NCBI GenBank assembly: GCA_028286585.1
Contig: JAQBRI010000008.1
Coordinates: 84,476 to 148,475 of the forward strand
Length of the DNA stretch: 64,000 bases
Direction of reading: 5' to 3'
Source of the DNA: Candidatus Kaiserbacteria bacterium
Lineage (GTDB): Bacteria; Patescibacteriota; Minisyncoccia; Phycocordibacterales; UBA2100
The notes under the pieces are model-generated. The model had not been told where the DNA came from. It saw nothing but the letters and a program-made list of their open reading frames with translations, and searched no databases. Position 1 is the first letter of the stretch. Each line of letters begins with the position of its first letter. This document shows positions 5,492 to 64,000 of this stretch, piece after piece. A program made the position numbers and the translations under genes.

Positions 5492-7543
5492 CTAAAAGTC
5501 ATCTAATAGTTTTTGCAATTCATCAGGCTCTACAAGCTCGGGTCGTGGTGATACTTCATTTTGCATAAAGTATTCATCTCTTTTCCCTTTTTTTCTTTTT
5601 CCAATGATATTGGAAGTAAGTAAGCTTTTTAAGGCGTCCTGAACATTACGTTGCCCAATTTGCTTATTGGATTGACAAATACGTTTAATATCCGGAGTCG
5701 TTTGTGGTCCTTCAATAAGAATACTTGGAATGTATTCAATCGCCTCACTAATTTTAGATTCCTTTTCTTCAATTTCTCCATTGTAAATCAACGAAGTCTT
5801 TCGCTGAATTTGGCTTTCATCATCAACCATATCGACCTTAAAAGGTTCAATTTCCTTGTCTAAACGATTTTTTCGTTGATAGATAGTAATGCTGTCATTT
5901 GTTTTCTTCATCATTAACAATATATCTACGCTTGCTGCTTTATCTTGACTACCCAGGAGGTGTTCCTTTTTCGGGACGCCCCCATCGAATCTTTCCGGTT
6001 TGCGTAAATGGTCAAGCCAAATGAAGCACACATTATTTTCTCTCATCTTTTTATAACGGTTAAAGAATTTTCTGATTTCTTCGGCTTTTTGTTCTTCCAA
6101 ACCACCTGCAACAGCACGAAATGTATCAATTATGACAACATCTATTTTTTGATTATGTATCGTCTCAATCAATTCTTTTGCCCAGGCATCATCATTTAGA
6201 TTAATATCATCGGCAGGTAGAAAGATTAGGTTGTCTGAGTCTGTCATACCAAGCTGTCTGCCGCGACTTTGAATTTGCCGTTTGCCGTTTTCTGCATCTA
6301 CGTACAGCACTCGACCTTGCTGGGTTGGATATTTTTCTTCACCAAATAAAGGGGCACCGCTTGATATACATTTTGCAAATTCCATAGCCATCCAGGTCTT
6401 ACCTTCACCTGAGATTGAGGCGAGAATCACTATACCTGCTTTTGGAATAAGGTTCGGGATGCGCCATCGATTTGAAGGGAATTCAAGGGCATCGAGCTCA
6501 CTCCATCGCATCGTGCATATTTTTTTCGTTTTTTCTTCAATATCTGGCTTTTTTTCAGCAAAATTATTTCTTTTCGACTGATCTGGATACTTATTGCATA
6601 ACCACTTATAGGCCTCCTTGTTATCAATTTTAAGTGTTTCGGCAACATAAGTAATGGCATTACCTTTTGCCGGAAAGTCACTACTCGTTGTTGCAATGTA
6701 ATTTCCATCACCTTGGCGGCCTTTAAATGTAGCAGTAGTAACACCATCTATAACAAGATGCCCCTGTTTATTAAACTCGGCCTTTTTCCCAAGTTCTGCC
6801 CATACATCAATTGCGGTTTGTTGAATATCGAAACCCTCACGATCCGCGCTAGCTTCAGTGTTCTTCTGACTAACAGGCTCTTCTGCTTTAGATTGCGATG
6901 GAGTATAGGGAAAGTATTGTTCGAGTTCAGTAATCGTATATGTTTTCCCGTTACCATTTTCCTCAGTGATTAAATAAGGTTCAGATTTGTTGTGATAATA
7001 TCCTGGTTTTCTCAACACACGCGTTACGTCCTTTACAGGATCGCCTTTTGAACCATATTTTATTGACCATTGTATTACACCATTTACCACGTTCTTATAT
7101 CGCTCCTGAGTATGTGTATCAATTTTGTCTTCGTTCAACCACCAGAGTGGTTGTAGGCCATTTTTAGTTATAATCCACACTGAAGGTGAGCAGTGAGCTG
7201 TAAATGCCATTTTAAGGTCAGTCTTGCGACTTTCACGATCCGACTCACTAATTTTTTCGTCGTCCTTGCATACATCAAGATCAGCAAAAACTGCATTCAA
7301 TTTCGTTAAAAATTCTTTGTTACGCTTTGTTTTAGCACCAGATTCTCTTAATTGCTCATGTGTAGCAAAAAAAGAATTTGCTGTCTCAAAGATTCCATAA
7401 CCCTGTGCATTTATGGCCTTAAGTTTATCTTCATGAGGATTTTCAAGTGTAATAGGTATTTTTACCTTGTCTTTATCACTGAAACAAACGACTAGTCGTA
7501 TACCTTGGGTCTCGATTGCTTGAATCGAGCTATTAGTTTCCAT
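5492..7543 (-). CDS. Replication protein of the element: an N-terminal primase-like domain fused to a RepA/DnaB-family P-loop ATPase (helicase-like)
   Basis: The C-terminal half has Walker A 'ASISGEGKTWMAMEFA', Walker B 'VVIIDTF' and 'LDHLRK', as in AAA_25/RepA-like replicative ATPases. The N-terminal ~320 aa resemble phage/plasmid primase N-domains. Total 683 aa. Confidence 0.65.
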   Translation of the reverse strand: METNSSIQAIETQGIRLVVCFSDKDKVKIPITLENPHEDKLKAINAQGYGIFETANSFFATHEQLRESGAKTKRNKEFLTKLNAVFADLDVCKDDEKISESDRESRKTDLKMAFTAHCSPSVWIITKNGLQPLWWLNEDKIDTHTQERYKNVVNGVIQWSIKYGSKGDPVKDVTRVLRKPGYYHNKSEPYLITEENGNGKTYTITELEQYFPYTPSQSKAEEPVSQKNTEASADREGFDIQQTAIDVWAELGKKAEFNKQGHLVIDGVTTATFKGRQGDGNYIATTSSDFPAKGNAITYVAETLKIDNKEAYKWLCNKYPDQSKRNNFAEKKPDIEEKTKKICTMRWSELDALEFPSNRWRIPNLIPKAGIVILASISGEGKTWMAMEFAKCISSGAPLFGEEKYPTQQGRVLYVDAENGKRQIQSRGRQLGMTDSDNLIFLPADDINLNDDAWAKELIETIHNQKIDVVIIDTFRAVAGGLEEQKAEEIRKFFNRYKKMRENNVCFIWLDHLRKPERFDGGVPKKEHLLGSQDKAASVDILLMMKKTNDSITIYQRKNRLDKEIEPFKVDMVDDESQIQRKTSLIYNGEIEEKESKISEAIEYIPSILIEGPQTTPDIKRICQSNKQIGQRNVQDALKSLLTSNIIGKRKKGKRDEYFMQNEVSPRPELVEPDELQKLLDDF

Positions 7544-7883: not shown

Positions 7884-8233
7884 TCTTCGAGAAGTCGGGT
7901 TTGGCATAAATGCCGCCGCCTGTATTCTCTGCTTTCCTAATAACAATATCACATAATATAAGTATGTAAAATTTGATACGTGTATAAGTAAAAAAATGTG
8001 CTTTTGTCATAAATTGTGTAAAATGTATATACACAACCAATATCGAGCCGAAAGGCAAGTGCCTAAACTATCGAGTAATCGATGGCATGGTGCAAAATCG
8101 CGACAAATGTAGAAAACCCGTTATCAGGGCGTTTGTCGCGTTATGCAGGGAAACTTGCATAGGGCCGCAAGGCCTCCTGGTAGCGGGCTTTATGTTGCCC
8201 AGCTATCAGCATTATCAGTAATGCAAAAAAGCT

Positions 8234-15759: not shown

Positions 15760-16290
15760 TTAGATTCTGTAGGTGACCTCTCGCGGGCCGTTGTCCCGAA
15801 GGAAATTCGAAATCCCTTTGAGGTTAGGTCGACTATCTTCCTTGGAGCTTGCAATGTGGCGTAAGAAGCTACGAACGAAATGGAATGCCTGGCGCCCGGG
15901 CCAATATTCGACGTACACTTCCATACTCTCGACTTCCCAGAGATAAAATCCGGAAGTCTGGCTGACGAGTGTCATTAGGACCACGGCACGAGGAAGATTG
16001 GGAAGCTGGTTCTCGCGCCCAAAGGGAGTGCGAACCGACGGCGAGGCAAAAAGAACCTCCGCTTGCACCTTCCTTACCGCTTTGACAGCCCACAATTCTT
16101 CTGCAGGAGGAAGAGCAATATTGAACGCCGCGGAGTTGTCGCGAGAGATGATGGATTCATAGTCGAGTCGGTACTGTGTGAGGAAAATCTCTGTATTGAG
16201 ATTATCCTTAAGCACCTGGGCGATCATGTTCAGCACGTACAGATCGGTCGCGCTGCCAGTCTGTGGCTTGGCTTTCTTTCTTCCAAACAT
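15760..16290 (-). CDS. Hypothetical protein
   Basis: 176-aa ORF with no recognisable motif. Confidence 0.4.
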   Translation of the reverse strand: MFGRKKAKPQTGSATDLYVLNMIAQVLKDNLNTEIFLTQYRLDYESIISRDNSAAFNIALPPAEELWAVKAVRKVQAEVLFASPSVRTPFGRENQLPNLPRAVVLMTLVSQTSGFYLWEVESMEVYVEYWPGRQAFHFVRSFLRHIASSKEDSRPNLKGISNFLRDNGPREVTYRI

Positions 16291-17834: not shown

Positions 17835-18218
17835 TCATTCCGATATATTCAGGCCCACAATTCTTGAAGGATCCAGCGTACTGCCGCCTTGCGGAAACAG
17901 TGTGACCGCCTCTCCCGAGATCGGTGAGAGTAAGAAGAGGCGTCCTTCTTCGGCATCCGAAACATTGTAGATAAGCAGGCTTGCGGAGTAGTCGAGGCGG
18001 TCACTGACATTCCATTCACCACCGTCCTCCATCTTGGCGACCCATTTGAGTGTGATATTGAGATCCCCGCAGTTGTCGGATGGAAAACCGGGGACTGGTT
18101 TACCTTCGGTTACCTCGACGGCGGCGATTTCTCCACGGTAGAGATAGTCTTCACCCTCATTTCGAACTTCGAGCTGACCACCTTTATAACGCTGAAGGTC
18201 TTGGGTAGTTAACTTCAT
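17835..18218 (-). CDS. Hypothetical protein
   Basis: 127-aa ORF. Confidence 0.4.
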   Translation of the reverse strand: MKLTTQDLQRYKGGQLEVRNEGEDYLYRGEIAAVEVTEGKPVPGFPSDNCGDLNITLKWVAKMEDGGEWNVSDRLDYSASLLIYNVSDAEEGRLFLLSPISGEAVTLFPQGGSTLDPSRIVGLNISE

Positions 18219-19228: not shown

Positions 19229-19612
19229 TTAGATATGGGGACCGTCTGGATCTTGGTATTTGATCCAAACCAGAGGCTGAGCAGGATCGAGTTTGACGCC
19301 GTTCGGATCGTCGGCCAACACATCAATGATGTCAAACTTGAGCTGACGAACCACGCTCTTGGTCAGTTTGGCCTTGCGATCAGGATAGCCAATGGTCTCG
19401 ACTTCGAATGAGAAAAGCGCCGACAATTGTGCACCGGGCGGATACATGAGTGGCAAAAAGTCGATGTCTTCGATTCCGAGGGTTGTGGCCTCGGTGCTGG
19501 CTGCATTAGCAACAAGTTTGCGGATAGCGAGGCCGGCCCTTTTGTGATCGAATTTGAGCATAAACATACTGGGCGCCAGATTGACGTCAATGTTCATAAA
19601 AACCTTAAGCAT
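19229..19612 (-). CDS. Hypothetical protein in the GC-rich block
   Basis: A good RBS (AAGGGAGATTT) precedes the ATG; 127 aa. Confidence 0.45.
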   Translation of the reverse strand: MLKVFMNIDVNLAPSMFMLKFDHKRAGLAIRKLVANAASTEATTLGIEDIDFLPLMYPPGAQLSALFSFEVETIGYPDRKAKLTKSVVRQLKFDIIDVLADDPNGVKLDPAQPLVWIKYQDPDGPHI

Positions 19613-19837: not shown

Positions 19838-20323
19838 ATGAGCGACACAAGGACCCGATTGAAAATTCGCAAAATTGCTATTCCAGTCATCGTCGACATT
19901 GGTCGCGACTGGAAACAACTTGTTCGTGCTATGGCACCTGAAACTGGCTCAGAAGTGCCGCAGGAACTCATCTCAAAAGATATTGTTCCTGCACGAAAAG
20001 TCCTACTCGTCAATTTTGGCGAAGATACTTTTAACAATATCGGAGAAGATCATTATCAATCCTGGCATGTCGCCTGGGGTCGCAAAAACGGTCTGCGTCC
20101 AGCAACAGACCGCGAAGTCATGTCGACTGGTTCTGCCGATCTGGAAAGTGATCTCGGCTCGGAACCGGTCGCAATCGTCTTGTTTCAAGTCGAGACGTGG
20201 GGCAATATGCCTTTTGGGCGAACCTTCCAGTTCGCAGGCGGTAGACGCCGTCTCCATTCAGAACTTTTGCTTCTTGGGATGTACCCCAGCTCTTGGTGGT
20301 TTCCGTATGTTCGTGAAGCCTAG
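19838..20323 (+). CDS. Hypothetical protein in the GC-rich block
   Basis: 161 aa from 'MSDTRTRLKI'. Other frames in this GC-rich region are also open. Confidence 0.35.
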   Translation: MSDTRTRLKIRKIAIPVIVDIGRDWKQLVRAMAPETGSEVPQELISKDIVPARKVLLVNFGEDTFNNIGEDHYQSWHVAWGRKNGLRPATDREVMSTGSADLESDLGSEPVAIVLFQVETWGNMPFGRTFQFAGGRRRLHSELLLLGMYPSSWWFPYVREA

Positions 20324-20450
20324 CATCACACCGCCACTTCAAAAGCCACCCTCCGGGGTTCGCTCTGGAGTGGTGGCTTTTTTGTATAATGCACCCTTCA
20401 TTTAAATAAGAATTCGCAAGGATCTTAGCTCTGTACCCGTGTCGCAAGTA

Positions 20451-20888: not shown

Positions 20889-20926
20889 AAAGCCGAACAC
20901 CCCTCTCGGGTAAGTAGGCTTTTTTC
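20889..20926 (+). terminator. Terminator-like repeat element, copy 1 (AAAGCCGAACACCCCTCTCGGGTAAGTAGGCTTTTTT)
   Basis: Outer stem AAAGCC/GGCTTT enclosing inner stem ACCC/GGGT, followed by a T-run. Confidence 0.5.
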
Positions 20927-20961
20927 ATTTTAAATATTATTTATACTGATATACTTACTAG

Positions 20962-22269: not shown

Positions 22270-22281
22270 CAAATCGCTGTT

Positions 22282-22313
22282 CAATAGACAGGAGGTAAAA
22301 TAGTGGTAAGCTG
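22282..22313 (+). repeat. Conserved leader CAATAGACAGGAGGTAAAATAGTGGTAAGCTG, copy A
   Basis: Identical 32-mer also present at 22767-22798. Confidence 0.5.
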
Positions 22314-22345
22314 TTTTTAGCTGCTGATAACGTGGGAAGATAGAA

Positions 22346-22684
22346 ATGCAAATCGATCCAAAAGCTGCACTAATGGCAATCGCCATATGCATACTAATGT
22401 ATATTCTGTCATCTTCTTTAGGCTTCAGGGAGGCAAGGCAAGAACTTAAAATCTTGAGAGTGTTATCAAAAAAAGGGCGGGCAAAGAGTCATGAGATTAT
22501 AAACATCGACCGTAAGATTGGATCTATTGCAATTTATGCTCGTCTCACAAGAATGGAGCAATACGGATTTATAGCTGGAGAAGGTCCATCCAAACCCACG
22601 CAATCTCGCGATCCTACAAAAATATGGTGGATCACAATGCGCGGAGCTACGAGACTAAAATATCTGGAAAAGAATTATAGATAG
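22346..22684 (+). CDS. Membrane-anchored winged-helix (PadR/MarR-like) small protein, paralog A
   Basis: TM helix, then 'QELKILRVLSKKG...W.ITM.G..RLKYLE'. Paralogous to 22831-23172. Confidence 0.5.
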   Translation: MQIDPKAALMAIAICILMYILSSSLGFREARQELKILRVLSKKGRAKSHEIINIDRKIGSIAIYARLTRMEQYGFIAGEGPSKPTQSRDPTKIWWITMRGATRLKYLEKNYR

Positions 22685-22729: not shown

Positions 22730-22766
22730 AAAGCCGAACACCCGCTCTGGGTAAGTAGGCTTTTTT
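22730..22766 (+). terminator. Terminator-like repeat element, copy 2
   Basis: AAAGCCGAACACCCGCTCTGGGTAAGTAGGCTTTTTT. Confidence 0.5.
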
Positions 22767-22798
22767 CAATAGACAGGAGGTAAAATAGTGGTAAGCTG
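22767..22798 (+). repeat. Conserved leader, copy B
   Basis: Identical to the 32-mer at 22282. Confidence 0.5.
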
Positions 22799-22830
22799 CC
22801 CTCAGTCGCCAATAACTCAGGGAGATAGAA

Positions 22831-23172
22831 ATGTCATTTTATCTTGGAATGGGATTCGTGATGATTGTAATAGTCGTCGCGATACTTGTTTGGCTTTCCT
22901 TGTTACATTCTCGGGAGCAAAAGCAGGAACTCAAGATTCTGGCATTGTTGTCAGACCTTGGTCGGCTTAACGGCCTCGAAATGTTTGAGTATGACAACTC
23001 CATTAGTCCTTCGAATCTCTACAAACGTTTATTAAGATTAGAGCAGGACGGAGTTATTTGCGGAGAGAATTTTGTCCACTTACCGGGAACTGCTCTGCCT
23101 GTTAAAAGGAAATTCTGGATTACTATGAAGGGAAACTCCAGGCTTAAGTATCTGGAACTGAACTTTAAGTGA
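22831..23172 (+). CDS. Membrane-anchored winged-helix small protein, paralog B
   Basis: TM helix, then 'QELKILALLSDLG...FWITMKGNSRLKYLE'. Confidence 0.5.
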   Translation: MSFYLGMGFVMIVIVVAILVWLSLLHSREQKQELKILALLSDLGRLNGLEMFEYDNSISPSNLYKRLLRLEQDGVICGENFVHLPGTALPVKRKFWITMKGNSRLKYLELNFK

Positions 23173-23213: not shown

Positions 23214-23255
23214 GAAAGCCGAACACCCCTCTCGGGTAAGTAGGCTTTTTCTTTT
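23214..23255 (+). terminator. Terminator-like repeat element, copy 3
   Basis: AAAGCCGAACACCCCTCTCGGGTAAGTAGGCTTTTTC. Confidence 0.5.
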
Positions 23256-23310
23256 TATAATTTAAACATGGCCTACCTGTATAAAATTTAATTCATGCTA
23301 CAATTTTGGC

Positions 23311-55722: not shown

Positions 55723-55735
55723 GTCTATACAATAA

Positions 55736-55764
55736 AGTTCTAACATTGTCCCACACTCCCAGCC
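55736..55764 (+). repeat. Cassette-boundary repeat, copy 7 (island 2)
   Basis: AGTTCTAACATTGTCCCACACTCCCAGCC. Confidence 0.55.
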
Positions 55765-56090: not shown

Positions 56091-56094
56091 TGTA

Positions 56095-56120
56095 AAAATG
56101 GGGTCTGACCCCATTTTCTA
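56095..56120 (+). terminator. Hairpin terminator AAAATGGGGTC-T-GACCCCATTTT (family copy 1)
   Basis: 11-bp perfect stem followed by TTTTC. Confidence 0.55.
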
Positions 56121-56195
56121 TTTAGAAACTCAAAACTTTTTCCTGAATATAAATCTCACGAAAGATTTAGTATTTCTGACTTAACGGAGGCGGTT

Positions 56196-57974: not shown

Positions 57975-58145
57975 TGAAAAAAATCCAAATCCTTATGGTT
58001 CATGGAGGCATGACCTTCAAAAACGAGAAGGACTATTTGCACTACCTAAAAACTAAAAAGGTCACAACAGCCAAAAAGATATACTGGGATGTAGACTTTG
58101 AAGAAAAATTGGGAAAAGGATTTGTAAGAAATGGGGGCTGACCCC
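57975..58145 (+). pseudogene. 56-aa ORF 'MKKIQILMVHGG...' ending inside a terminator hairpin. It may be a truncated hydrolase N-terminus.
   Basis: It resembles the start of an alpha/beta-hydrolase-type esterase but stops after 56 codons within AATGGGGGCTGACCCCATT. Confidence 0.25.
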
Positions 58146-58148
58146 ATT
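58130..58148 (+). terminator. Hairpin AATGGGG-GCTGA-CCCCATT (family copy 2)
   Basis: Same family as the hairpins at 56095 and 59472. Confidence 0.4.
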
Positions 58149-58209
58149 ATCTTGAGTAAGCAAAAAGTGCAGCTGTCTGCAAAATAAACACATATGCTAC
58201 ACTTTTTGA

Positions 58210-58999: not shown

Positions 59000-59470
59000 A
59001 TGAAATATGTTGCATTGTTGCGCGGCATAATGCCAACAAATCCAAACATGCGCGGCGAAAAGTTGAGAGCCGTATTTGAGGGACTGAAATTTAAAAACGT
59101 GCACACGGTAATTGCAAGTGGGAATGTGGTGTTTGATTCATCTAGCAAAAATACTACCGAGCTTGAAACAAAGATAGAAAAGGAACTTCTCAAAAAGCTT
59201 GGTTTTACAAGTACTACCATGATTCGAAACCACGCAGAATTCGAAGCGTTGGTTAACAAAAAACCATTTAAAGGCGTGAAAGATGAAAAGCCAAACTATC
59301 TTGTTGTGACATTTTTTAAAGACCGACGCAAAGATCTCTGCACAGTTATTGACCTTGGCGCGAGTAAAACACCCAAGTTTATGGCCTATATTGAACGAAA
59401 GCACGGCAAGGCCATGACTACCCGCACGTGGAAGACTGTCAATCGCATACTTAAACAGATGGAAACATAA
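59000..59470 (+). CDS. DUF1697-family protein
   Basis: 'MKYVALLRGIMPTNPNMRGEKLRAVFEGLKFKNVHTVIASGNVVF' is the canonical DUF1697 N-terminus. Confidence 0.65.
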   Translation: MKYVALLRGIMPTNPNMRGEKLRAVFEGLKFKNVHTVIASGNVVFDSSSKNTTELETKIEKELLKKLGFTSTTMIRNHAEFEALVNKKPFKGVKDEKPNYLVVTFFKDRRKDLCTVIDLGASKTPKFMAYIERKHGKAMTTRTWKTVNRILKQMET

Positions 59471-59471
59471 G

Positions 59472-59492
59472 AAATGGGGTCAGGGCCCATTA
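59472..59492 (+). terminator. Hairpin AAATGGGGTCAGGGCCCATT (family copy 3, imperfect)
   Basis: It immediately follows the TAA stop of the DUF1697 gene. Confidence 0.35.
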
Positions 59493-59524
59493 TCGTGTGT
59501 CGATATTTAGAATATACTTACTAT

Positions 59525-61296: not shown

Positions 61297-61325
61297 AAAG
61301 AAAAAGACCCGGCTGTATGCCGGGT
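61297..61325 (-). terminator. Hairpin GACCCGGC-TGTAT-GCCGGGTC with TTTTTCTTT on the minus strand. It is the terminator of the GcrA-like gene and the left copy of a 30-bp direct repeat.
   Basis: 29/31 identical to 63480-63510. Confidence 0.55.
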
Positions 61326-61338
61326 CGGAAGTTATTAT

Positions 61339-62127
61339 TCAGCCATTTATGTAAGAACTATTTGCTTGCCACCTTGTCAGATTTTTACTTTCTTCTAGAG
61401 GTAGGGGCCGGTGCAGTAAGCCTGCGTGGTATGCGCAGTACTGATCGCGCTTTCCCGACGTTGCATTACCGCAGTATAAAGCGCTCGCTCCGCTACCAGC
61501 AACCACTGTTCGGCATGCTCCAGTTTCAGGCATGCCGAAGAATGAGAAATTTTTGAACTTGGGCTTTGTTAGCACAAGAACAGTTTTTTGCACTTGAGCG
61601 GGCACAAATGTTTCCAGAATAATTTCAGGAGCCAGCTGAGGCTTTTTTGCTTTTGGTCGTGATCTTCTTCTTTTCGAGTTATTTCGCGCAGCACTTTGTG
61701 GCTTTTTCCTTGCGCTATCATCTAGTTCACCCGCTTCACGCATTCTGTTAATCCGACCTATAACCGCAGACCGGGTTAGATCAGGTATACCAAGAAGCCG
61801 CTCTTCCAAAACGGCACTCTGTGCCTTGGCTTGAAAGTGTTTTGCAATAACCTCTCCGCTTAGTCCTTGCATCCAAAGCGTTTTTGCTAATTCACTATGT
61901 TCTGGGGTCCAGATTGTATCCCTATTCGTACCCTGAGTCGACGGGTGGGTTCTCCCTCTGTCGTGCAGTCTCCCTTTCTTTCGCATTGTTCGAAGGCGAC
62001 CAAGAATTGTATTCCTGATTACAGTAAGGTAGCCCATACTTCGAAAGTAGCCTGCAATATCTTCCGCACTCATCCCTCCCAGCCAGAGCTTAACTAGAAG
62101 TTCTTCTCGCTTTATAGTCCAATTCAT
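61339..62127 (-). CDS. GcrA-family cell-cycle-regulator-like protein with a tandemly duplicated N-terminal DNA-binding domain
   Basis: Two repeats, 'WTIKREELLVKLWLGGMSAEDIAGYF...TVIRNTILGRLRTM' and 'WTPEHSELAKTLWMQGLSGEVIAKHF...RSAVIGRINRM'. A GcrA-type C-terminus '...YCGNATSGKRDQYCAYHAGLLH' follows. Confidence 0.6.
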   Translation of the reverse strand: MNWTIKREELLVKLWLGGMSAEDIAGYFRSMGYLTVIRNTILGRLRTMRKKGRLHDRGRTHPSTQGTNRDTIWTPEHSELAKTLWMQGLSGEVIAKHFQAKAQSAVLEERLLGIPDLTRSAVIGRINRMREAGELDDSARKKPQSAARNNSKRRRSRPKAKKPQLAPEIILETFVPAQVQKTVLVLTKPKFKNFSFFGMPETGACRTVVAGSGASALYCGNATSGKRDQYCAYHAGLLHRPLPLEESKNLTRWQANSSYING

Positions 62128-62286
62128 CAGAACCCCCTAATCATTTCAGAGAGCAAGAGTAGTCTGCCAGAACTCTACAACAAGAATATAGTTTTTGCTA
62201 CTCAGCCTCGACGTATTGGTTTTTTTACTGTAGATTGCTGGCAGAGATGATCTCTTGTTTTAATCTAACCCGTAAGGAGTGGAACG

Positions 62287-63417
62287 ATGTCAAATACGCA
62301 AGTTATCAAGCCAGGTTCAACCCTGGGCATTTTGGGTGACGGCCAGCTTGGCCGAATGCTCGCAATGGCTGCTGCGCAGCTGGGATATAAAGTTGCGGTA
62401 CTTGGGCCTGGCGGGCGTGAGAGCCCCACAGGTCATGTGTCCTATTGGGCAAAAGCATGGGGCCCAAATGTCGAAGTGAGCGAAGAGCTGCTCGATGAAT
62501 TTTGCGCACTTGTGTCGGTAGTGATGATTGAATGGGAAAATATTCCCATTGCACTCGTCGAGCGCATCAAGAATAAAGGCATACCAGTGAGGCCCGATAG
62601 TTCGGTACTGGCTGTCGCGCAAGATAGAATGCTCGAGAAAGCTGCTGCGCAGTCAGTAGGCATTAAGACACCTCATTATAAGCATTTGGAATGGGGGCTT
62701 GGTATATTGACTGCAAAAAGCCTCGCCTTGGAAGATGGTATTCTGAAGACTTGCCGCGACGGCTACGATGGCAAGGGCCAGGTACGCGTCAAGGCAGGCG
62801 AGAAGCTTGAAAAAGCATGGGCACAACTTAAAAATGTGCCTTGCGTTCTCGAGGAGCTAGTTGACTTTGCATGTGAAATTTCGATCATCGTTGCTCGTGC
62901 GCCTGGTCAGGTTCCAAAAACATATGGCCCGTTCCAGAACGAGCACGTGAACGGAATTTTAAAAAATGCCACCAAATATGCAAAGGGGACTTCGCTACTC
63001 GGATATTTTTGGAAAGAGAAAAGCGAACAAATTGTCCAGAATGCAATTAAGGCCACCACTTCGCTAGCAGCTCACCTCGATGTGCATGGGCTCCTCGCTG
63101 TTGAGTTCTTTGTTCTTCATGACGGCACGGTCCTTTTCAACGAGATGGCGCCCCGGCCTCACAACTCGGGGCATCTCACCATGGAATGCTGCTACACGAG
63201 CCAATTCGAGCAGTACGTCCGAGCAGTATGTAACTTGCCGTTCGGATCAAGCGAGTTTCACTCTTGGGGAACTATGCACAATCTCCTTGGAGACGAAGAA
63301 GGGGAATTGCAAAGCCTCTATCATTCAGAGAGAACCTCCTTTCATCTCTATGGTAAGAAGGGAGAGAAGACTGGGCGCAAGACGGGTCATGTGGTTTACT
63401 ATCGAATCGATACCTAG
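62287..63417 (+). CDS. purK: N5-carboxyaminoimidazole ribonucleotide synthase-like ATP-grasp enzyme (PurK family)
   Basis: 'LGILGDGQLGRMLAMAAAQLGYKV' N-terminus and an ATP-grasp core; 376 aa. Confidence 0.75.
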   Translation: MSNTQVIKPGSTLGILGDGQLGRMLAMAAAQLGYKVAVLGPGGRESPTGHVSYWAKAWGPNVEVSEELLDEFCALVSVVMIEWENIPIALVERIKNKGIPVRPDSSVLAVAQDRMLEKAAAQSVGIKTPHYKHLEWGLGILTAKSLALEDGILKTCRDGYDGKGQVRVKAGEKLEKAWAQLKNVPCVLEELVDFACEISIIVARAPGQVPKTYGPFQNEHVNGILKNATKYAKGTSLLGYFWKEKSEQIVQNAIKATTSLAAHLDVHGLLAVEFFVLHDGTVLFNEMAPRPHNSGHLTMECCYTSQFEQYVRAVCNLPFGSSEFHSWGTMHNLLGDEEGELQSLYHSERTSFHLYGKKGEKTGRKTGHVVYYRIDT

Positions 63418-63435
63418 TTATGTTCACTTGTTAGA

Positions 63436-63477
63436 ACTCGTCTGTAATGTATACAGACGAGTTTTTCTGTTTTTTTA
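63436..63477 (+). terminator. Rho-independent terminator after purK
   Basis: Stem ACTCGTCTGTA/TACAGACGAGT (11 bp) followed by TTTTTCTGTTTTTTT. Confidence 0.65.
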
Positions 63478-63479
63478 AA

Positions 63480-63510
63480 GAAAAAGACCCGGGCGTATGC
63501 CGGGTCTCTA
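63480..63510. repeat. Right copy of the 30-bp hairpin repeat AAAGAAAAAGACCCGGGCGTATGCCGGGTC
   Basis: Near-identical to 61297-61325. No minus-strand gene lies to its right, so it is not obviously a functional terminator here. Confidence 0.5.
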
Positions 63511-63597
63511 TAGTAAAGGAATTTATCTGCAAAGTATCCATACACTTCTTCGCTCAAAATTGAAGGGACCAGGTATAGAGGTGATATAATTTCATTC

Positions 63598-64000
63598 ATG
63601 ATACTAAATAGGCAAATTCTTTTTGGTCAAAGAATTCTGTTTGTAGCTGCCGCTCTATTTTTTGTAAATGCTAGTTTTGCTTTTGCTCACGAAAGAGAAG
63701 TGATAAATGTAGGCGGTACAGACTATCTTTTTGTGGTTGGATCACTTAACGAGCCGGTTGTTGTCGGAGATAAAACAGGTATTGATTTGCGGGTGTATAT
63801 ACCAGACCCAAAAGACATTGGAAATTCATCGGCAACAAACACAAAGCCGGTACTTGGACTTGAAAAAACATTAAAAATAGAAAATATTTCGGGTAGTAAG
63901 AGTAAAGAATTTCCACTCGAGGCCTCGTGGGGAAAGGAGGGAAGTTATCAGACTGTATTTTATCCCAGTAGTGCGGATGATTTTTCGTACAGAATATTTG
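63598..64000 (+). CDS. Secreted hypothetical protein. The 3' end lies outside the window.
   Basis: ATG at 63598 with the signal peptide 'MILNRQILFGQRILFVAAALFFVNASFAFA'. The frame is open to the window edge and is not in the ORF track because no stop is present. Confidence 0.4.
   Translation, partial: MILNRQILFGQRILFVAAALFFVNASFAFAHEREVINVGGTDYLFVVGSLNEPVVVGDKTGIDLRVYIPDPKDIGNSSATNTKPVLGLEKTLKIENISGSKSKEFPLEASWGKEGSYQTVFYPSSADDFSYRIF

Follow-up and report, generated by a model that had tools for sequence, protein, structure and literature searches.

Two near-identical terminator-like modules bracket a GcrA-like and a PurK-like gene

In a 64,000-nt stretch of contig JAQBRI010000008.1 from a Candidatus Kaiserbacteria bacterium (assembly GCA_028286585.1, positions 84,476 to 148,475; hereafter the window), two near-identical 30-nt sequences enclose a segment that holds only a GcrA-like gene and a PurK-like gene, and that is adjoined by genes for a HAD hydrolase and for a 227-aa secreted or membrane protein. 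We favor, with modest confidence, the interpretation that these 30-mers represent a locally duplicated Rho-independent terminator module residing in a rearranged accessory region, with one copy at work and the other left as an orphan. The two elements are as follows.

61297-61326, minus strand: left terminator copy; hairpin at 61306-61326 with an 8-bp stem (GACCCGGC/GCCGGGTC) and a 5-nt loop, followed by UUUUUCUUU at 61305-61297.
63477-63506, minus strand: right terminator copy; 28/30 identical to the left copy, located past the purK terminator and ahead of the promoter region that serves the next plus-strand gene.

The repeated unit, AAAGAAAAAGACCCGG..GTATGCCGGGTC (30 nt), reads in full AAAGAAAAAGACCCGGCTGTATGCCGGGTC in the left copy, and the right copy departs from it by two adjacent substitutions (CT to GC). 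Both copies lie in direct orientation on the plus strand at a spacing of 2180 bp. The original prediction made from this DNA was right as to the existence and orientation of the repeats, but it placed the second copy at 63480, which is 3 bases from the true position, and gave the identity as 29/31. No match to the 30-mer was obtained in 100 trials with the dinucleotide-shuffled window. A Logan contig (L001) representing an independent assembly of run SRR13312974 extends the window to the right by 5.05 kb, and no third copy with three or fewer mismatches is present in the resulting 69 kb. As this contig is identical to the window at all 9069 overlapping bases, the repeat pair is not an artefact of assembly.

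The similarity between the two copies does not continue into their surroundings. When the 90-nt flanks of the left and right copies were aligned with each other, the alignments were no better than those of shuffled sequences (p 0.34 and 0.63). Because similarity stops at the edges of the module, the repeated unit appears to coincide with the functional unit. A longer repeat extending past the 30-mer was also considered, as both upstream sides have TTCTGTTT in common, and was rejected on the basis of these non-significant alignments.

In the minus-strand reading, both copies form a GC-rich hairpin with UUUUUCUUU directly 3′ of it. The stems comprise 7-8 bp, including 6-7 G-C pairs, and that of the left copy can be written as GACCCGGC-AUACA-GCCGGGUC. 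Folding yields −17.5 kcal/mol (z −5.4) for the left copy and −16.4 kcal/mol (z −3.9) for the right copy, in which the CT-to-GC change has removed the closing C-G pair of the stem. A T-run is absent from the plus strand of either copy, the U-rich tail being confined to the minus strand. By analogy with intrinsic terminators, including those arranged in back-to-back pairs, which have the same GC-rich stem of this length, short loop and U-rich tail, both copies are predicted to act as canonical intrinsic (Rho-independent) terminators of minus-strand transcription. The left hairpin begins 12 nt past the stop codon of the minus-strand GcrA-like gene, and this copy is thus placed as the putative intrinsic terminator of that gene, in agreement with the role first proposed for it. 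What distinguishes the pair from ordinary intrinsic terminators is that the right copy is without a cognate gene, and that the two copies are nearly identical, unlike terminators of independent origin.

The two copies appear to derive from one sequence

Terminators may come to resemble one another without common descent, and the likeness of the two 30-mers was therefore set against that of other sites. For the 2701 pairings of terminator-like sites within the 69 kb, mean identity is 11.4 of 30 positions (standard deviation 1.8), and the closest pair other than the one in question matches at 19/30. This comparison serves as a background distribution only, the flagged pair itself having been mis-registered in it, with the right stem extending into the tail. 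The stem and A-run are generic. A loose pattern of stem plus A-run (A5) returned many unrelated terminators among the matches listed from GTDB genomes, mostly from Pseudomonas and from other phyla, the genome studied here not being among those listed. The stem and A-run with an AAAG leader returned 13 matches in JGI metagenomes, with GC contents of 45-66% and different loops, and neither this organism nor any relative contributed to them. Four related loci, moreover, have the tail UUUU(U)CUUU at their PurK terminators. Tail and stem are therefore by themselves weak evidence for shared descent.

These same observations are what would favor independent convergence, in which unrelated terminators have become alike through a preference of the lineage for this tail and for GC-rich stems. 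The loops point in the other direction, as 5 of the 7 loop bases are shared between the two window copies. No copy carrying this loop was detected in JGI metagenomes, in IMG/VR or among the GTDB matches listed. Furthermore, among the matches listed, more than 130 unrelated look-alike terminators from other phyla all differ from the 30-mer by at least 4 mismatches, so that none falls within three. Together with the background maximum of 19/30, the agreement of the loops and the distance of the look-alikes lead us to infer that both copies stem from one sequence. Convergence is accordingly left as a very improbable explanation, which the identity of the loops, at the level of sequence, brings close to refutation.

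The right copy is an orphan

The right copy has the shape of a minus-strand terminator, and it lies among the following plus-strand elements.

63433-63476, plus strand: purK intrinsic terminator; 14-bp stem followed by UUUUUCUGUUUUUUU, −18.8 kcal/mol, z −5.3.
63560-63600, plus strand: promoter-like element of the 227-aa gene; TTGAAG ... TGATATAAT ending 7 nt before the ATG at 63598.

The right copy is an orphan in that no cognate gene can be assigned to it. The PurK-like gene possesses its own terminator; the only minus-strand open reading frames (ORFs) on its right side run through the hairpin itself, with no credible ORF upstream of it; the next gene to the right, encoding the 227-aa protein, lies on the plus strand; and the nearest minus-strand gene (64368-64673) has a hairpin of its own. 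The original prediction had likewise noted that there is no minus-strand gene for this copy to end. A minus-strand promoter-like site at 63630-63601 (9/12 match) was examined and dismissed as being of a kind that occurs at chance level.

The purK terminator directly abuts the orphan copy, and the two form a back-to-back terminator pair of the type found between convergent genes. On the other side, the TGATATAAT box is matched by a near-identical TGTGATATAAT box in the ortholog of the 227-aa gene in a related locus (L147), where it also lies 7 nt before the ATG. This correspondence suggests that the orphan hairpin is upstream of the promoter of the 227-aa gene and thus outside of its transcript, and that it is probably part of no obvious transcript. 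The start regions of the 227-aa gene (63560-63600) and of its L147 ortholog (7980-8003) both display a −10 box of the extended type, TGnTATAAT, whose end lies 7 nt ahead of the ATG, and a Shine-Dalgarno sequence is not present at the usual distance in either of them, which suggests that the mRNA of this gene may be leaderless.

In the scenario that we prefer, the left copy would be at work, ending transcripts of the GcrA-like gene, and the right copy would most likely be the leftover terminator of a minus-strand neighbor that once converged on purK and that was lost or relocated, its loss having accompanied the rearrangement of this accessory region. The orphan may still block antisense transcription into purK and gcrA, and we thus infer a role either as a relic or as an insulator. 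Several observations weigh against this scenario. The 91 bp that follow the orphan on its right show no trace of a lost minus-strand gene. Of the six strongest canonical terminators of the 69 kb, three are located at the edges of the segment between 61.3 and 63.5 kb, and the only two copies of the 30-mer in the 69 kb exactly bracket its GC-richest 2.2 kb, as an insertion would give. A duplicated terminator with one orphan copy would in any case represent ordinary genome wear, of little import when taken alone.

Composition of the bracketed segment and the possibility of an insertion

The interior of the bracketed segment consists of three features.

61339-62127, minus strand: GcrA-like gene, 262 aa; match to Pfam PF07750 with 77.7 bits (gathering cutoff 26.9).
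62128-62286, no strand assigned: divergent gcrA-purK intergenic region; GC 41.5%, with an imperfect inverted repeat (62163-62186 / 62222-62245); promoters presumed.
62287-63417, plus strand: PurK-like ATP-grasp gene, 376 aa; Pfam PF22660, PF02222 and PF17769; no purE nearby.

With a GC content of 47.9%, this segment of 2210 bp is the maximum among all windows of that size (mean 42.2%, standard deviation 2.2), which bears out the earlier impression that it is richer in GC than its surroundings; the flanks have 40.7% and 40.3%. The corresponding check of codon usage, conducted against the ORFs of the window, gave a divided answer. The PurK-like gene is shifted, with a GC content at third codon positions (GC3) of 0.517 in comparison with a mean of 0.391 (standard deviation 0.075, 82 ORFs; local mean 0.36), equivalent to +1.7 standard deviations and rank 7 of 82, and its codon fit ranks tenth from the bottom among the same 82 ORFs. 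The GcrA-like gene, on the other hand, is average in GC3 (0.395) and ordinary in codon fit. Its GC content of 47% is located in codon positions 1 and 2, and thus reflects amino-acid composition. The GC excess of the segment is mainly that of the PurK-like gene and of an Arg/Gly/Ala-rich GcrA-like protein, rather than that of a sharply bounded foreign block.

These data bear on the proposal that the gcrA-purK block was inserted as a cassette between the HAD and 227-aa genes, either via recombination at a pre-existing hairpin or with duplication of a 30-bp boundary. We regard such an insertion as unlikely, even though the direct repeats coincide precisely with the boundaries of the GC-richest 2.2 kb and GC3 of the PurK-like gene exceeds the local mean. 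The proposal also draws on the relatives, in which the PurK-like gene occupies at least four different neighborhoods and is GC-richer than its neighbors in three of five genomes. In addition, the 227-aa gene has orthologs (53-66% identity) whose upstream neighborhood in L147 and L148 is another one, conserved between the two and consisting of BacA, a beta-CASP nuclease, a hypothetical protein and NUDIX, and this arrangement is absent in the window. Synteny between the window and L147 is restricted to RF1, several kb upstream, and NUDIX, downstream, in the same order, and the 366-aa protein of the left flank is unrelated to the hypothetical genes located upstream in L147, L148 and L005. Because relatives do not share the arrangement seen on the left side of the 227-aa gene, a rearrangement breakpoint probably lies near the orphan hairpin.

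Other findings argue against the cassette. The segment neither contains nor adjoins an integrase, a transposase or any other mobility gene, and the repeat coincides exactly with a putative functional terminator rather than with an arbitrary target. The composition of the GcrA-like gene is ordinary, and the rank of the PurK-like gene in GC3 is not extreme. A search for donors outside of the Candidate Phyla Radiation (CPR), which the original prediction had proposed as a check, returned other Paceibacteria as the closest named relatives of both proteins; no close non-CPR or viral relative was recovered, and IMG/VR holds no viral relative of either the GcrA-like or the PurK-like protein. The two genes are adjacent in no relative, and thus do not travel together. 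Among the relatives, none of which keeps both flanks, no empty site was detected. Insertions bounded by direct repeats, such as those at att sites or with target-site duplications, likewise have direct repeats around a compositionally distinct block; here, however, there is no recombinase, the repeat equals a putative functional terminator, neither gene appears to be foreign to the lineage, and no unoccupied site is seen. The earlier suggestion of a horizontal gene transfer with a duplicated boundary is thus not borne out by the features compared here, since similarity ends at the terminator edges, mobility genes are missing, the closest named relatives are Paceibacteria and no empty site was found.

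A related and quite improbable conjecture is that terminator hairpins in Kaiserbacteria serve as recombination points by which self-contained, terminator-insulated gene units are moved into variable parts of the chromosome. The GcrA-like and PurK-like genes would then form such a unit, the 30-bp repeats would be its joints, and the look-alike terminators would be a by-product.

For the 227-aa protein itself, no Pfam match was found over the first 134 residues, and none was precomputed for the whole protein.

Other local families of terminators and intergenic motifs

The 30-mers are not the only look-alike hairpins in this DNA. Three plus-strand hairpins of the form AAATGGGG-loop-CCCCATT, 70-82% alike, are located at 56092-56124, 58125-58157 and 59468-59500. 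They occupy the 3′ ends of three plus-strand genes, one of 93 aa, one of 55 aa and one for DUF1697, which either differ in Pfam family or have none; only the first hairpin has a good T-tail. A further three terminators of 47 nt (AAAGCCGAACACCCCTCTCGGGTAAGTAGGCTTTTTT), at 20889-20935, 22730-22776 and 23215-23261, are 79-89% alike, partly through tandem paralogs. In a relative (L005), a 36-nt repeat with 94% identity, composed of a terminator tail and a promoter-like box, brackets the PurK-like gene, and in another (L003) a 32-nt motif occurs in 12 copies within 13 kb (between 350 and 11228). Considering these other local families in the window and its relatives, look-alike regulatory modules at neighboring genes appear to be a habit of this genome and its kin, such that bracketing pairs would be expected now and then. 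It had alternatively been supposed that the 30-mer belongs to a genome-wide terminator family. In its strict form that idea is not supported, with only two copies in the 69 kb, and it holds in a weaker one, in which there are several small local families of near-identical hairpins.

The same families lend some plausibility to a dispersed mobile hairpin, akin to repetitive extragenic palindromic (REP) sequences or miniature inverted-repeat transposable elements, in which small palindromic intergenic repeats would be scattered genome-wide and the two copies would be neighbors by accident. Such an element would also account for a right copy lying where no terminator is needed. Short palindromic repeats that double as terminators are represented by REP sequences and bacterial interspersed mosaic elements (BIME) of enterobacteria and by the Correia elements of Neisseria, which reach tens to hundreds of copies per genome. 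Like them, the 30-mer is a short hairpin-forming intergenic repeat present in more than one copy, and such repeats can lie at the 3′ ends of genes. Unlike them, it has two copies in 69 kb, is a shorter unit and has no associated transposase that we could see. That both copies fall within 2.2 kb, that the loop is absent from the metagenome, viral and listed genome matches described above, and that the 30-nt element has neither terminal inverted repeats beyond its stem nor a target duplication all speak against mobility, and we judge this explanation rather unlikely.

CPR bacteria thus appear to employ nearly identical terminator or promoter modules more than once at neighboring genes, a property that could be used for mapping transcription units in uncultured organisms and that invites the question by what route these modules spread. 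In our estimation, the repeat itself is a less interesting lead than the orphan clade of PurK-like proteins, the GcrA-family regulators found in Paceibacteria or the conserved intergenic motifs.

Among these motifs, one of approximately 32 nt is common to two Kaiserbacteria genomes, reading AAAAAGGTTCCAACATCGTCCCAGACTGCCAGC in the window and AACAGGTTCGAACATCGTCCAGCAGGCGGAGC in L003. The window has six copies between 12982 and 15637 and one at 55731-55763, and all copies in both genomes are on the plus strand. In L003 the motif is found in almost every intergenic gap, usually right after the T-tail of a terminator. About half of the aligned copies are followed by a TTGAC-like box, and there is no Rfam match. 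The motif may be an element located upstream of promoters or one bound by a regulator. Near 22-23 kb in the window, a 69-nt leader (22280-22348 / 22765-22833, 83% identical) stands in front of each of two small paralogous genes in tandem, a pattern that suggests that a gene was duplicated locally in tandem together with its leader and terminator.

The GcrA-like protein

GcrA of Alphaproteobacteria (PF07750) is a sigma-70 cofactor and cell-cycle regulator, for which Caulobacter structures are available (5yiu, 7ye1). Both its N-terminal DNA-binding domain and its Cys/His-containing C-terminal domain are recognizable in the protein encoded here. The latter differs from the alphaproteobacterial regulator in that the DNA-binding domain is doubled in tandem (residues 3-55 and 73-135; internal repeat E 1e-12), in that it scores 48 bits against the NCBIfam equivalog sig70cofacGcrA, well below the cutoff of 280, and in that its host is a CPR bacterium. 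Its match to Caulobacter GcrA (7ye1_G) is weak (E 1.3e-4). An N-terminal domain that is likewise doubled is seen in P0130, an unrelated metagenomic GcrA of 229 aa.

In a word-based search for close relatives, the protein retrieved only itself. When 1.84 billion representatives were searched exhaustively, 124 weak matches were obtained, the best full-length one having 41% identity. This protein is annotated as a GcrA family regulator in a Paceibacterota metagenome-assembled genome, where its neighborhood is of a housekeeping character (SerRS, DprA, GcrA, MazE, RND pump, TopA). Another match comes from Candidatus Adlerbacteria. On the basis of the sequences from these two groups, GcrA-family genes can be considered recurrent in CPR bacteria. 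A search of PHROGs gave only weak matches of the GcrA type. Rfam yielded nothing credible between 61 and 64 kb (best hit ncr1175, E 0.55), and we found nothing relevant in the literature on GcrA or purK in CPR bacteria.

The PurK-like protein

The PurK-like protein has the complete three-domain architecture (preATP-grasp, ATP-grasp and PurK_C) of PurK, the N5-carboxyaminoimidazole ribonucleotide synthetase, and aligns over its full length with solved enzymes of this kind (10bm_A, E 1.8e-67). It differs from PurK in failing to reach any of the NCBIfam equivalog cutoffs (355.5 bits against 387 for NF004676, the best, and 281 against 318 for TIGR01161), in belonging to a Paceibacteria clade, and in being encoded by a gene that stands alone, without purE, in several neighborhoods. 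Relatives with 46-62% identity are annotated as Kaiserbacteria, Paceibacterota and Patescibacteria, and the next tier, at 41-45%, consists of Alphaproteobacteria such as Azospirillum.

The gene had been described from the outset as a purK without a purE in the window, and a query with an E. coli PurE sequence detected no PurE-like sequence in the 69 kb. In the related loci that were compared (L003, L005, L007/L008 and L145/L146), the PurK-like gene is in every case monocistronic, has a terminator of its own, and never adjoins purE or gcrA. Its arrangements there include Ham1-PurK-SHMT-DUF2914, L19-(hypothetical)-PurK and PurK-small ORF-Mu Gam. To our knowledge, de novo purine synthesis is not expected of Paceibacteria. 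A solitary clade of this kind is suggestive of a function other than the canonical one or else of repeated transfer, and the recurrence of solitary PurK-like genes and of GcrA-family genes in Paceibacteria hints at a non-canonical role for the enzyme, independent of the repeat that brackets it here.

Rfam searches of the PurK leaders of relatives gave no matches. In L005, the leaders of the PurK-like gene and of SHMT (5673-5790 and 7199-7290) have their first 36 nt in common (94% identical), as well as a further box, CTAACT(A/C)ACGGAT. The PurK leader is approximately 330 nt in length, and neither leader is matched in Rfam. This similarity in sequence is such that the two may represent a shared regulatory leader.

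Additional observations in the window

Two features elsewhere in the window are recorded here. Four ORFs between 15760 and 20405, at 15760-16290 (minus), 17835-18218 (minus), 19229-19612 (minus) and 19875-20405 (plus), combine a GC3 of 0.53-0.60 with the poorest codon fit in the window. At 8060-8175 on the plus strand, there is a match to the LOOT RNA (Rfam RF03000) with 84.4 bits, the gathering score being 46.4.

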